From Halorutilales archaeon Cl-col2-1 (GTDB lineage Archaea; Halobacteriota; Halobacteria; Halobacteriales; Afararchaeaceae): a stretch of DNA of 64,000 nt. A program made the position numbers and the translations under genes. Shown in pieces: positions 3,394-16,567 of this stretch. The notes beneath the pieces are model-generated. The model made no database searches. It had not been told where the DNA came from and was given only the letters and a program-made list of their open reading frames with translations. The number at the start of each line of letters is the position of its first letter. Within the stretch, counting starts at the first letter, position 1. The stretch is from positions 1,504,001 through 1,568,000 of the forward strand of contig CP169074.1 of assembly GCA_041891055.1 (NCBI GenBank), given 5' to 3'.

Positions 3394-4842
3394 ATGCCCG
3401 AGGAACTTCCTCCTAAGGACGATTTCAGCGACTGGTATAACGAGCTTCTGTTTGAGGCAGAGATAATGGACGTGAGGTATCCCGCGAAGGGGGTCTACGT
3501 CTGGTTCCCGTTCGGATACGAGCTCAGGAACCTCGTCTACGACCGCCTCAAGGAGCTTCACGACGACACGGGACACAGGGAGGCGAGCTTTCCCGTCCTC
3601 ATACCTGAGGGAATACTCGCGAAGGAGAGCGAACACATAGCCGGGTTCGAGGAGGAGGTGTTCTGGGTCACACAGGGCGGCGACAAGGAGCTTGACGAAC
3701 GTATGGCTCTCCGCCCGACGAGTGAGACTCCGATGTACACGATGTTCGACCTCTGGGTGCGTTCACACACCGACCTGCCTCTCAAGGTGTACCAGGTCGC
3801 CAATATCTGGAGGTCGGAGACCGAACACACACGTCCTCTGATACGTCTGAGGGAGATAACGAGCTTCAAGGAGGCACACACCGCACACGCAAACCCCGAG
3901 GAGGCGGCGGAACAGGTCGAGACCGCACTCGACATCTACGGCGACTTCTTCGACTTCTTAGGCGTTCCCCACGTCGTCTGTGAACGTCCCGACTGGGACA
4001 AGTTCCCGGGTGCCGAGTACACTTACGCCGTCGATACACTGATGCCCGACGGACGCGCGCTCCAGATAGGTACAGCGCACAACTTAGGACAGAACTTCTC
4101 GGAGCCCTTCGACGTCGACTTCGAGACGCCCGAGGGAGAACACGACTACGTCTACCAGACGTCGTACGGCGTGAGCGAGAGATGTATCGCGTCAGTGATG
4201 TCGGTACACGGCGACGACAACGGTCTCGTACTCCCGAGCGAGGTCGCTCCAACACAGGTTGCGATCGTCCCGATACTCTTCGGAGACGACGACGAGAACG
4301 AGGCTATACTCGAAAAATGCGAGGAAGTCGTCGAGGAGCTTGAGGAAGAGTACGGTCTCCGCGTAGAACTCGACGACTCCGACGATAGCCCCGGAGCGAA
4401 GTACTACAAGTGGGAGCTCAAGGGAACCCCCGTACGTATAGAGATAGGTCCACGTGACCTCGAAGAAGGGTCCGCGGTCGTCGTCAACCGTCTCGGAGAG
4501 GAGTCGGACGCCGACTTCGATCAGATAGGCGAGGAGATAGACGACGAGCTAGAGTACCTGTCGAGACAGATAGGACAGAAGGCACAGGGAGAACTCGAAA
4601 GCAGGACTGAGGCCTGTGAGACCTACGACGAGGCGAGGTCGGTGATAGGTGACGGCTTCGCCGAGGCGATGTGGTGTGGAGACGAGGACTGTGGGAAGGA
4701 GATGGAAGACGAGATAGGCGGCGACATGCTCGGCGAGGTTATCGAGGGAATCGACACTCAAGCCGAGGACGAGACCGACGGAAGCTGTCTCGGATGTGGA
4801 GACGAGGGAGAGAAGTCGGTGATATTCGCGAAGACGTACTGA
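3394..4842 (+). CDS. proS: prolyl-tRNA synthetase (archaeal/eukaryotic type)
   Basis: LRPTSET, RPLIRLREI..FKEAHTAH, QIGTAHNLG, C-terminal Zn cysteines and terminal Tyr. Confidence 0.96.
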   Translation: MPEELPPKDDFSDWYNELLFEAEIMDVRYPAKGVYVWFPFGYELRNLVYDRLKELHDDTGHREASFPVLIPEGILAKESEHIAGFEEEVFWVTQGGDKELDERMALRPTSETPMYTMFDLWVRSHTDLPLKVYQVANIWRSETEHTRPLIRLREITSFKEAHTAHANPEEAAEQVETALDIYGDFFDFLGVPHVVCERPDWDKFPGAEYTYAVDTLMPDGRALQIGTAHNLGQNFSEPFDVDFETPEGEHDYVYQTSYGVSERCIASVMSVHGDDNGLVLPSEVAPTQVAIVPILFGDDDENEAILEKCEEVVEELEEEYGLRVELDDSDDSPGAKYYKWELKGTPVRIEIGPRDLEEGSAVVVNRLGEESDADFDQIGEEIDDELEYLSRQIGQKAQGELESRTEACETYDEARSVIGDGFAEAMWCGDEDCGKEMEDEIGGDMLGEVIEGIDTQAEDETDGSCLGCGDEGEKSVIFAKTY

Positions 4843-4850
4843 GACTGAGA

Positions 4851-5282
4851 ATGAACGACGAGACTGAGACGGGAGACAAAGACGGAGAAGAGGCTCGAAG
4901 CCGGGACGGAGACGCAGACGAGGTCGACGGCAGAGGAGACTGTGAGGCGTGTTTCGAGGCGGGGATAAAGCTGGGTGCGCTCTACCACCAGTTCACGGGC
5001 ACGCCAATCTCGGGCGAGTCGGCGGAGTCACTCGAAACCGCGATAGAGGAAGCAGTCGGGAACCAGAGGTACGTCGAGGAGGTCGGCGTAGAGATAAGCG
5101 GCATAGAGCCCAACCGGTTCGGCTACTCCGAGCTAGAGGGGGAGATGGTCGACGTGAGTCTCGTGGTCGAGAAGGAGGGTGTAGTCGTCGAGGCGAGCAT
5201 GAGTGAGGAGGACGGCTACCCCATGATGAGGGTCGACGAGGTTCTCGAAGAAGACGAAGAGAGCTACGAGACCCAAGACTAA
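4851..5282 (+). CDS. mptD: archaeal dihydroneopterin aldolase (MptD/MJ0408 family)
   Basis: ACFEAGIKLGALYHQFTGTP, GYSELEG, GYPMM; ATG at 4851 just after the proS stop. Confidence 0.85.
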   Translation: MNDETETGDKDGEEARSRDGDADEVDGRGDCEACFEAGIKLGALYHQFTGTPISGESAESLETAIEEAVGNQRYVEEVGVEISGIEPNRFGYSELEGEMVDVSLVVEKEGVVVEASMSEEDGYPMMRVDEVLEEDEESYETQD

Positions 5283-5289
5283 GGCGGGC

Positions 5290-5672
5290 GGGACAGGTAG
5301 TAGTTGTGACTTCCTCCCCGCCCTCCACTCGCACTTAATGTGCGAGTTTAAGGATATTCGGAAATCTTCGATTTCCGAGCTTCCACAAATCTCCGATTTG
5401 TGTTATAGCCAATCGAAGATTGGCGTATCATCCAGATCAAAGATCTGGAGGCGGGGCTTCCAGAGCAGTTTGACCATGATGCCGTCTTCTTTGGATCTCA
5501 CCTCAGAGCGGTCTTCTCTGGAAGTCATCAAGCAGAGCTTGATGGCTCGCAAATCAAAGATTTGCGAAGCCTCTGGGAGGTTCCTGCTTCCGCCACGAAC
5601 TTATAAACCGTGAGGCCCACAGAGGTTCTGTGTTCACAGGCGTAAATTCCGCCGCGCCCCTGCGTACTCGAT
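5290..5672 (-). ncRNA. putative TnpB omegaRNA/sotRNA-like guide RNA (scaffold plus flank-derived guide); ends approximate
   Basis: GGAATTTACGCCTGTGAA...GTGGCGGAAGCAGGAACC...right-end stem...GTCAC resembles haloarchaeal tnpB 3'-overlapping RNAs; TATA-like AAGCTATAT at 5706-5698 upstream. Confidence 0.6.
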
Positions 5673-5995
5673 GCTTAGAAATAGTACCGAGTGCGTGATA
5701 TAGCTTACGGCTGTCGCAAGATCTCTGATCTTGCTACCCACGAATTCAAAGAATTTGTGACTGTATCCCCTCCCTACTGTGTATGCAAATATTCGATTTG
5801 CTTGTGCTAGAAAACTCTACGAGTTTTCTGCATCACAGAAATCTCTGATTTCTGAAGACCCGTGAACCTAAGATTCACGAACGCTTCTTGTCTACTAAAG
5901 CAGACTGCGATGTGTTGAAAATCGGAGATTTTCATACGTATGCGAATCTCTGATTCGCAACACTCCTTGAGGAAGGGGACTTAGCCTGTAAAAAG
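5306..5995 (-). mobile_element. non-autonomous IS200/IS605 (IS1341-like) derivative, PATE-like, without tnpA/tnpB
   Basis: Minus strand left end: TTAA|CTTTTTACAGGCT-AAGT-CCCCTTCCT...AGGGAGGGGATACAG. Right end: GAAG-CCCCGCCTCC...GGAGGGCGGGG-AGGAAG-TCAC. Guides AAGT and GAAG predict cleavage sites TTxA and TCxC, and TTAA and TCAC are present. Confidence 0.78.
5328..5959. repeat. cluster of about 15 related 17-21 bp palindromes, most with the core ATC-NNN-GAT
   Basis: Hairpins at 5328-5346, 5358-5378, 5384-5402, 5408-5424, 5431-5449, 5526-5544, 5548-5566, 5716-5734, 5739-5759, 5785-5801, 5809-5829, 5836-5854, 5861-5879, 5916-5934, 5941-5959. Confidence 0.9.
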
Positions 5996-6023
5996 TTAAG
6001 TCGTGTCGGGTCTAAGCACCGGC

Positions 6024-6419
6024 ATGTCAGAGTCACAGACAAAGCTCGACGACGACGACCTGTTCACAGAGGCGTCCGACGAGATGAGGTCGGACATAAC
6101 CGAGGCGCTCGACGACGCGCGCGAGGCACTTCCCGAGACAGACAGTCTTCTCGAGATAGAGGGGGAGAACAACAACCTGATAGGCGTGCTCAACGGTCTC
6201 AAGTCGGATCTCGACGCCGAGAATGCGGCGGAGTCACTAGCCGAGGCGAAGAAATGGTTCGAGATGGGGAGAAGGGCGGACGCCTTCGACGGCGACTTCG
6301 TCGAGGAGACACAGGGGAGGATAGAAGACCTACACGAGGCGGTCGAGGCGGTCGAGACCGCGGAGGAGTCGGCGACTCAGCTTACCGACTCGGTCGCTAG
6401 TCTCAAACATCTCCTATAG
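6024..6419 (+). CDS. conserved haloarchaeal acidic helical protein (DUF5790-like)
   Basis: MSESQTKLDDDDLFTEASDEMR...EAKKWF.MG.RADAF pattern; TATA-like AAAGTTAAG about 25 nt upstream. Confidence 0.7.
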   Translation: MSESQTKLDDDDLFTEASDEMRSDITEALDDAREALPETDSLLEIEGENNNLIGVLNGLKSDLDAENAAESLAEAKKWFEMGRRADAFDGDFVEETQGRIEDLHEAVEAVETAEESATQLTDSVASLKHLL

Positions 6420-14358: not shown

Positions 14359-14473
14359 ATAAGCTATATATTGGTCAAGACTAATCTCATTTGAACGGTG
14401 CCTGGCTTGCATCGCTTATCTCAATCTACGACTTCGCAAGCCTCGAAACGTACACGTATCTCGAAGGGAAAGC

Positions 14474-16427: not shown

Positions 16428-16567
16428 ATACGACGTAAGTAATAGCTCCGTATTACTGTTTCCACTCGTTAGCGGACACCGACACGCCGACTCAGACACC
16501 GCTGAAGATACAGCCCGAGACTACTGACACAAGCTATATGACTCAGTGACGACCTACTCTAAACCAC

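Follow-up and report, generated by a model that had tools for sequence, protein, structure and literature searches.

Can a mobile element that has lost its genes go on supplying a guide RNA, or is what remains of it a fossil? This question is raised by a locus in Halorutilales archaeon Cl-col2-1 (genome G000; archaeal, 2.06 Mb on four contigs, C1 and C2 among them, with an archaeal rRNA operon), which lies in the 64-kb stretch of contig CP169074.1 (positions 1,504,001 to 1,568,000) that we analysed as a whole and refer to as the window. An original prediction, made from the letters of the window, had described positions 5290-5999 as a protein-less IS200/IS605 element carrying a promoter-fused, mobilisable, stand-alone omegaRNA-like guide RNA. 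We found that positions 5306-5994, read on the minus strand as are all motifs of the element, are probably a fixed, decayed and non-autonomous IS200/IS605 element of the haloarchaeal IS1341 (tnpB-only) type, a PATE. The centre of the region is a homologue, in sequence and in fold, of the omegaRNA region of intact elements, and this core most likely survives as a fossil rather than as a working guide RNA. Comparisons were made with a sister genome of the same genus (G001), with two genomes of another family in the same order (G011 and G027), and with an order-level sample of 151 genomes (G000 and 150 others).

Both ends match those of tnpB elements

The genome holds 34 matches to PF07282 (the TnpB zinc ribbon), of which 29 fall in open frames 372-472 aa long, and a single Y1 TnpA gene (PF01797; C1:979038-979397), and the end neighbouring this tnpA has a similar CCCCGCCC/GGGCGGGG hairpin. 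When all tnpB loci of G000 were set to one orientation and compared with the minus strand of the window, positions 6002-5700 matched the DNA upstream of five tnpB genes with orientation and order kept (184 nt at 90%, 148 nt at 84%, 97 nt at 88%, 42 nt at 90% and 37 nt at 89%). The longest of these matches joins window 5883-5700 to the left end (LE) of C1:1825424-1826665, where homology of the inner LE segment continues up to 5700. The word TTAAC just outside the LE stands before the LE in three of the five other G000 copies too; one of the remaining two has TTCAC and the other an unclear word. The LE of the intact element at C1:1350955-1352187 is compact, reading ...GACTTAAC followed by TGTTTTCAGGCGCTAAGTCCCCTTCCTCAAGGAG-(38 nt)-CAGTAGGGAGGGGATACAG. 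It is matched by window 6002-5963 and 5781-5761, pieces that lie ~25 nt apart there, with the same TTAAC, the same start and the same two arms, which in the window are separated by ~180 nt. Since the intact LE is compact, window 5782-5962 is extra sequence.

At the other side, the canonical right end (RE) directly follows the tnpB stop (...GGAAGCCCTACCCTC...GAGTAGGGTGGGGTAGTTCAC). A BLAST search with the canonical 3' region matched 98 of the 151 genomes, and homology among full-length copies ends exactly after GTTCAC, as it does in 26 of 26 extracted sequences. A sister lineage of the same family has the right end GGAAGCCCC...GGGTGGGGAGGA(A/T)GTCAC. Ends of the form GGAAGCCCC...GGGGAGGA(A/T)GTCAC lie 3' of tnpB genes in other genomes. 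In G112 and G147 the end GGAAGCCCC...GGGGAGGAAGTCAC follows tnpB-like coding sequence, and it occurs in G050 and G121 too. The RE of the window reads GGAAGCCCCGCCTCC...GGAGGGCGGGGAGGAAGTCAC, with the family tail GGAAGTCAC, and it therefore belongs to the GTCAC form. Related ends adjoin tnpB genes in G000 and in other genomes, in agreement with the element type and orientation first proposed, and the boundaries stand essentially as given.

In IS608, tetranucleotides beside the end hairpins pair with the words at the cleavage sites. The pairs AAGT/TTAA and GAAG/TCAC of the window fit this type of rule, as do those of the canonical element. Imperfect palindromes are subterminal at both ends and there are no terminal inverted repeats; nor is there a target duplication, as the flanking sequences, TTAAC and AACTAC, do not repeat one another. 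The features of the element, in order along the minus strand, are as follows.

5995-5999, minus: TTAAC, a pentanucleotide resembling a target or target-adjacent motif (TAM), just outside the LE
5766-5994, minus: LE, starting TTTTTACAGGCTAAGT, homologous to the LEs of tnpB elements
5982-5979, minus: AAGT, tetranucleotide 5' of the LE hairpin
5979-5970 and 5775-5766, minus: arms TCCCCTTCCT and AGGGAGGGGA of the LE end-hairpin, with 9 Watson-Crick pairs and one G.T
5782-5962, minus: nested hairpin modules swelling the LE loop by ~180 nt, missing from the compact LE of C1:1350955
5701-5765, minus: inner LE segment with two further hairpins (a perfect one at 5716-5734), ending at the putative junction GTAAGCTAT
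5706-5698, minus: TATA-like word AAGCTATAT, overlapping the edge of the junction segment
5650-5700, minus: putative deletion junction and degenerate remnant of the 3' coding part of tnpB, from an alignment by eye to the canonical tnpB 3' end
from 5650, minus: GGAATTTACGCCTGTGAA, then GGAAGCAGGAACC
5564-5649, minus: omegaRNA-like core, from a covariance model (R1) and unconstrained folding
5637-5634, minus: GTGA
5457-5563, minus: inserted block between the core and the right-end hairpin, a place where canonical elements are unbroken
5306-5460, minus: RE, comprising the end hairpin and a TCAC tail
5460-5457, minus: GAAG, tetranucleotide 5' of the RE hairpin
5456-5447 and 5326-5316, minus: arms CCCCGCCTCC and GGAGGGCGGGG of the RE end-hairpin
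5452-5356, minus: four nested RE hairpin modules, 97 nt, present in G000 and absent from G001
5347-5327, minus: RE inner hairpin
5315-5306, minus: RE tail AGGAAGTCAC, with the terminal TCAC at 5309-5306
5289-5305, minus: flank between the RE and the stop codon of the neighbouring gene, the would-be guide AACTACTACCTGTCCCG

All motifs listed in the original prediction, GGAATTTACGCCTGTGAA and GGAAGCAGGAACC included, are present at these positions, the conserved outer word being in fact TTAAC (5999-5995) where TTAA had been given. A GGGAGTTCAC word at window 55250 was set aside as a chance match within coding sequence. Small open reading frames (ORFs) of ~50-60 aa were also observed between the LE and tnpB of two resident elements (C1:1825424-1827300 and C1:1350955-1352560), which end in ...VIRVSDPDETDDQDE and ...FVQEKLDELIEERES.

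A gene-less insertion shared by two genomes of one genus

The element occupies a 720-nt gap between two plus-strand genes, one for dihydroneopterin aldolase (DHNA; 4671-5282) and a DUF5790 ORF (6003-6419, with its likely ATG at 6024), and the G+C content of the gap is 0.42-0.51 compared with ~0.57-0.60 around it. In G011 and G027 only ~33 nt lie between the DHNA stop and the DUF5790 ATG, which is an empty site, although these genomes belong to another family and the exact pre-insertion sequence was not recovered from them. The element is present at the same locus in G001. G000 has a single full-length copy, and neither multiple copies nor presence restricted to one strain was found. The description of the element as mobilisable is not supported: there is one full-length copy, and it sits at the same site in the sister genome.

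Only three ORFs of at least 40 aa lie wholly within 5290-5999 (91, 49 and 42 aa). A Pfam search with the 91-aa plus-strand ORF gave no family, and a coding gene in the gap was dropped as an explanation. When the 33 TnpB frames of G000 were compared with the region by tblastn, no tnpB remnant was found at the protein level (best E 0.002), and the short matches that did appear are translated hairpin repeats. The ORF list, Pfam and tblastn therefore agree with the earlier statement that no tnpA or tnpB ORF is present.

The centre retains the sequence and fold of an omegaRNA core

No second copy of the central 130 nt exists in G000. Aligned by eye, the centre corresponds to the last ~75 codons of canonical tnpB (GGAATTTACGCCTGTGAACAC versus CCGAATCAACGCCTGTGGAGAC, and GGAAGCAGGAA versus GGAAACAGGAA). 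Among 26 aligned canonical sequences RNAalifold gave 54 pairs, seven of them with compensatory changes, and covariance model R1 was built from the RNA part of these 26 canonical tnpB 3'/RE sequences together with two gene-less copies. Its sole significant match in the window lies on the minus strand at 5649-5564 (37.8 bits, E 6e-8, no non-canonical pair flagged); the G001 copy scores 40.7 bits and the RNA of the intact resident element 154.7 bits. Rfam, in comparison, gave nothing for the region at the gathering score, and at E up to 10 only three sub-threshold chance matches (mir-254, ssnA and mir-29). These blanks are uninformative, because no Rfam model matches even the RNA of the intact resident element. 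Of the covariance-model tests, then, the database search says nothing either way and the model made from intact elements is positive.

The core comprises the helices CCTGT/GCAGG, CAC/GTG and GAAC/GTTC and an 8-bp hairpin, and is followed by CCTC-CCA-GAGG-CTTCGC. The unconstrained minimum free energy (MFE) fold of the 60-nt core CCTGT...GCAGGAA is

(((((...(((.((((...((((((((....)))))))).)))))))......)))))..

This is a nest of 5-, 3-, 4- and 8-bp helices as in eight canonical cores, which also share its 3-nt bulge and its 3' internal loop of 6 nt. The helix sequences differ from the canonical ones (GAC/GTC has become CAC/GTG, and GCGC-type pairs have become GAAC/GTTC). The R1 match and this free fold together bear out the omegaRNA-like character that had been ascribed to the region. 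Folding the whole RNA (5665-5306) gave an MFE structure with z = -6.55 in which the CCTGT/GCAGG helix was not recovered; it appears only with the core folded alone. The pseudoknot suggested earlier between GTGA and TCAC is compatible with the window, and GUGRA/UUCAC is compatible in canonical sequences, where the positions hardly vary; the GTCAC lineage has GCGGA, and pairing of the GTGA/TCAC type is not kept there.

Taken together, the homologies at the ends and centre would fit the following course of events. The ancestor of the genus may have gained the element 3' of TTAAC in the short DHNA-DUF5790 spacer, possibly by a TnpA-type mechanism. An internal deletion would then have removed the upstream small-ORF region and nearly all of tnpB, joining the LE to the last ~75 tnpB codons, the part that encodes the omegaRNA, and ~24-nt hairpin modules would later have become nested inside the LE and RE hairpins and between the core and the RE. 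Gene-less fusions of an LE to an omegaRNA region are also found in G049 (locus L088) and G113 (L104), and solo RNA or right-end pieces in G047 and G077. Beside these, we observed that tnpB 3' regions in several genera (L082-L087, L089, L099 and L100) carry a two-hairpin insert of ~53-57 nt directly before the ACGCCTGTGG start of the core, and that the gene-less L088 has the same hairpin at its LE/omegaRNA junction, a sharing that suggests repeat-mediated core deletion.

The core is separated from the right end and the guide

In canonical elements GCAGGAAGCCC is continuous. In the window, the passage from GCAGGAA to GCCCC is interrupted by 126 nt (the 5585-5461 region), and a further 97 nt lie in the RE stem of G000 (5452-5356), such that the scaffold in this genome is not contiguous with the right end and the flanking guide. 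A BLAST search with the core matched 3 of the 151 genomes, namely G000 itself, G001 and one gene-less element at 75%. No tnpB with a closely related core was found in G000 or in the 150 other genomes, and a 19-mer of the core had 0 matches in collections of genome contigs and 0 in collections of metagenome contigs. Because the core of G000 no longer adjoins the element end and the guide, and because no closely matching TnpB was found there, we read it as a probable fossil; these same observations speak against the working guide RNA first proposed. The first 16 nt of the guide have no other match in G000 with fewer than two mismatches, and of the two sites with two mismatches neither is preceded by TTAAC. 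This lack of matches decides nothing, because a homing model expects it.

The supposed promoter points the same way. The TATA-like word AAGCTATAT occurs in three exact copies in the window and in eight with at most one mismatch, compared with a mean of 3.32 in shuffles, of which 2 in 100 reach eight. Its other exact copies, at 16531-16539 and 14361-14369, lie 29 nt before the ATG of a gene for a PolD small-subunit-like protein and 105 nt before that of Cdc6, and the observation that the word precedes both genes was correct. The 29-nt distance of the PolD small-subunit-like gene fits a leaderless-type promoter. The copy in the element, however, sits at the putative deletion junction, in the least conserved 50 nt between G000 and G001 (42/50 identical), and its G001 counterpart reads AAGCTATTT, which does not favour a promoter fused to the RNA.

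Over half of the region consists of nested mini-hairpins

The region holds 12 perfect hairpins with a stem of at least 6 and a loop of 3, compared with a mean of 0.2 and a maximum of 3 in 500 dinucleotide shuffles. More than half of its length consists of nested mini-hairpins that recur every ~24 nt, most of them with AATC-NNN-GATT at the tip of the stem; a 52-nt palindrome of two hairpins lies at 5912-5963. The inserted block between core and RE contains two modules, 5567-5547 and 5544-5526, as well as a 68-nt domain whose closing stem is CTTCCAGAG/CTCTGGAAG (5524-5516 with 5465-5457), and partial matches to its nested modules stand directly after the tnpB stop of other elements. These repeats, the separation of the core from the RE and the single copy at a shared site had all been missed in the original prediction.

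Genome-wide, G000 has 1159 perfect hairpins with stem 6 and loop 3, 200 of which end in ATC before the loop; a shuffle control of C1 gave 486 hairpins, with the commonest stem tip, GGC, seen only 21 times. The 235 ATC-NNN-GAT sites with a stem of at least 5 form 113 clusters, 50 of them with two or more hairpins, often 24 nt apart. Of 514 perfect stem-7 hairpins, 131 are no more than 700 nt away from a tnpB ORF, and these zones cover 4% of the genome. Hairpins are also found in the end-hairpin loops of other elements, including the end beside the sole tnpA, and in frame in two of seven aligned TnpB proteins as the insert GSQIEDLR before the first RuvC motif. The palindromes of the region are thus a genome-wide repeat tied to tnpB elements, and a replication origin or an array of protein-binding sites was dropped as an explanation. 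A distant-mode search of a plasmid collection with 5880-5975 gave no match.

Between the two genomes of the genus the modules differ in blocks. The 97 nt with four hairpins (5452-5356) inside the RE hairpin are present in G000 and absent from G001, and G001 has ~143 nt extra (six hairpins) inside the LE hairpin near window 5884. Since the genomes differ by blocks of four and six modules, the nesting appears to be still ongoing. One further possibility is that the modules are minimal, 'terminal-only' hyperparasites of IS200/IS605 type that disarm tnpB elements, while the gene-less core is still read by the resident TnpB. The modules would integrate into the single-stranded loops of TnpA-recognised end hairpins and into omegaRNA linkers, and so inflate the elements. 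We consider this combination improbable; were it true, the locus would be a natural experiment on the tolerance of a TnpB scaffold for inserted RNA.

Several side observations concern the same modules. The two in-frame carriers are C1:129306-130610 and C1:1843541-1844899, in which ~8 residues fall in a variable linker, and the five aligned paralogues are without them. The hairpin at 5547-5567 has an identical stem (CGCAAATC/GATTTGCG) in both genomes, with the loop TTT in G000 and AAA in G001 (L023) in minus-strand reading, and across the genome 27 of 266 distinct stem tips were seen with a loop and also with its reverse complement. Two tnpB-less, hairpin-rich clusters (C1:1655673-1656365 with nine modules and C2:61990-62479 with seven) are 93% identical to window 5882-5973, and each ends in an RE-like hairpin with the tail GTTGAC (R1, 23 bits).

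Observations that do not fit a simple fossil

Several results weigh against a decayed element with a fossil core. The right end of G001 is compact (~128 nt) and less disrupted than that of G000. The four core substitutions between the two genomes fall at unpaired positions or are swaps between G.U and G-C, leaving the fold intact; selection still acting on the RNA would likewise account for a kept fold with helix-sparing substitutions. The genome also encodes an intact TnpB of this broad family: that of C1:1350955-1352187 has 410 aa and the domains PF12323, PF01385 and PF07282, and its residues 6-369 align to ISDra2 TnpB chains (E 1e-36). The LE, RE and flank are better conserved than four-fold sites, and the sequence after the core resembles a collapsed right end; we take up these last two points below.

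One alternative is a working stand-alone omegaRNA gene, as first proposed. Its RNA would be transcribed from the 5706-5698 word, end just past 5306 and be loaded by a TnpB encoded in trans, which would cleave the empty donor joint (TTAAC plus flank, that is TTAAC + AACTACTACCTGTCCC) and thereby retain the element, and the single TnpA could still move it. The homology of the core to the omegaRNA of the family, its kept fold, the sparing of helices between G000 and G001, and the residence of both an intact same-family TnpB and one TnpA are in its favour, as are the intact and highly conserved ends, AAGT/TTAA and GAAG/TCAC pairs and flank. So too are the distance of 29 nt, typical of a promoter, between AAGCTATAT and the PolD small-subunit-like ATG, and the recurrence in other genomes of gene-less elements that keep exactly this RNA region. 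Precedent exists in the parts of PMC10055086 and PMC4615843 considered here. Against this, the core diverges at about the rate of four-fold sites (60/64 identical over the core stretch versus 198/215 at four-fold sites of the flanking genes), and the R1 score of 37.8 bits is far from the 154.7 bits of the resident intact RNA. The gap of 126 nt between core and RE, the 97 nt of modules added in G000, the altered promoter word in the least conserved stretch, the restriction of core matches to three genomes with no closely related core beside a tnpB, and the single copy at one shared site all tell in the same direction. Moreover, no BRE-TATA (B recognition element and TATA box) promoter was found upstream of haloarchaeal sotRNAs, according to the available part of PMC4615843. 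On balance we regard a working guide as unlikely.

The conservation of the ends raises a different alternative. Positions 5701-5994, 5306-5355, 5283-5305 and 5995-6023 are together 379/384 identical between G000 and G001, versus 198/215 at four-fold sites, and the flank 5283-5305 is identical at 23/23 positions; conservation above that of four-fold sites is not what a pure fossil predicts. This identity could be due to constraint, to exaptation by the flanking genes or to conversion between repeats. If the host had taken the element over, the LE would now serve as upstream control of DUF5790 and the hairpin-rich RE would terminate DHNA transcription, which would explain why the element was retained. 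Such a role is suggested by the identity of precisely the LE, RE, flank and the 29 nt before DUF5790, and by an insertion into a short spacer that must have held the ancestral DUF5790 promoter. Only two genomes were compared, however, gene conversion between this and other copies or repair inside palindromes could also have produced the identity, and blocks of modules have been gained and lost inside these same parts. We therefore consider host takeover rather improbable.

The sequence CCTC-CCA-GAGG-CTTCGC (5579-5564) resembles a collapsed right end when compared with L104, and the region may therefore be two tandem elements. The first, made of LE and core, would have terminated at 5564 in a collapsed hairpin followed by a tail that was once TTCAC and is now TTCGC, and a second gene-less element (5563-5306) would have inserted right after this tail, which mimics a TTAAC/TTCAC target. 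GCAGGAA-CCTC-CCA-GAGGC-TTCGC does align with GCAGGAAGCCTCGGGG-CTTGA-CCCCGAGGCACTTCAC of the gene-less element in G113, the G001 copy has a weaker second full-length R1 match in its right-end part (16.8 bits, E 0.015 over 70 kb), and the LE of the resident C1:1825424 stands directly 3' of a TTCAC word. Yet there is no LE-like sequence 3' of 5564, and the interior of the second unit lacks a core-like fold. Strings of nested modules that follow other tnpB stops also match 5575-5530 (at 79-81%), and the GGAAGCCCC after the block restores the exact canonical GCAGGAAGCCCC context, as a simple insertion would. Two tandem elements are hence a possibility that we keep in view but do not favour, and a single decayed element with a fossil core remains the probable reading.

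Relation to known elements and significance

PATEs of Haloquadratum walsbyi derive from IS605-type elements, lack genes and carry palindromes near their ends (Dyall-Smith et al. 2011, PMC3119063). In the part of that paper considered here, they arise by core deletion of IS1341-type elements such as HqIRS71, some keep part of the C-terminal region of tnpB, and small repeats invade them. The element of the window is like them in its lack of terminal inverted repeats, its near-terminal palindromes, a length too short for a transposase, its internal deletion and its invasion by small repeats. It differs from the Haloquadratum PATEs, as far as they are described there, in organism and sequence, in being a lone, heterogeneous copy that gives no sign of having spread, and in modules of ~24 nt as opposed to ~110 bp. 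The SMR-A repeats of Haloquadratum (HqIRS42/43/55) have a length of ~110 bp and conspicuous inverted repeats at their termini, and their insertion sites are the near-terminal palindromes of PATEs and of IS605-type transposons, according to the same part of PMC3119063. Like them, the modules of G000 are transposase-free small repeats that lie within end hairpins in near-terminal palindromes and differ between close genomes. Unlike them, they are ~24-nt hairpins in blocks of two, four or six with an AATC-NNN-GATT tip and are also found in frame within tnpB, and the likeness is drawn from this description.

PATE-like elements 'often encode omegaRNAs' that need TnpB in trans (Meers et al. 2023, PMC10055086), and in Halobacterium salinarum a sotRNA occurs at a truncated tnpB pseudogene (Gomes-Filho et al. 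2015, PMC4615843). As in these cases, to judge from the portions of both papers at hand, the right-end RNA region of the window has outlived tnpB and would need a TnpB in trans; the RNAs of those studies were shown to be expressed, whereas the present one is predicted from sequence and has inserted repeats that break up its scaffold. The words orphan, stand-alone, PATE and promoter are absent from PMC12558985. The intact resident element C1:1350955, which has homologues in 98 of the 151 genomes, shares the LE start (TTAAC followed by T..AGGC.CTAAGTCCCCTTCCTCAAGGAG), the core architecture and the GAAG-hairpin-TCAC right end, and is unlike the window element in having tnpB, an upstream small ORF, compact LE and RE, and the tail GTAGTTCAC in place of GGAAGTCAC.

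Gene-less remnants of this type have already been described in haloarchaea, and the idea that a gene-less element may carry an omegaRNA for use by a TnpB encoded elsewhere has been published, as the available parts of PMC10055086 and PMC4615843 make clear; the locus adds no new kind of system. It provides a clean and well-bounded example of the decay of a tnpB element, by core deletion and then by colonisation of the end hairpins by small hairpin repeats, and it indicates that the fold of an omegaRNA core can outlive the nuclease gene. If the RNA were made and loaded in trans, the natural insertions of 126 nt and 97 nt would map positions at which the scaffold tolerates extra RNA.

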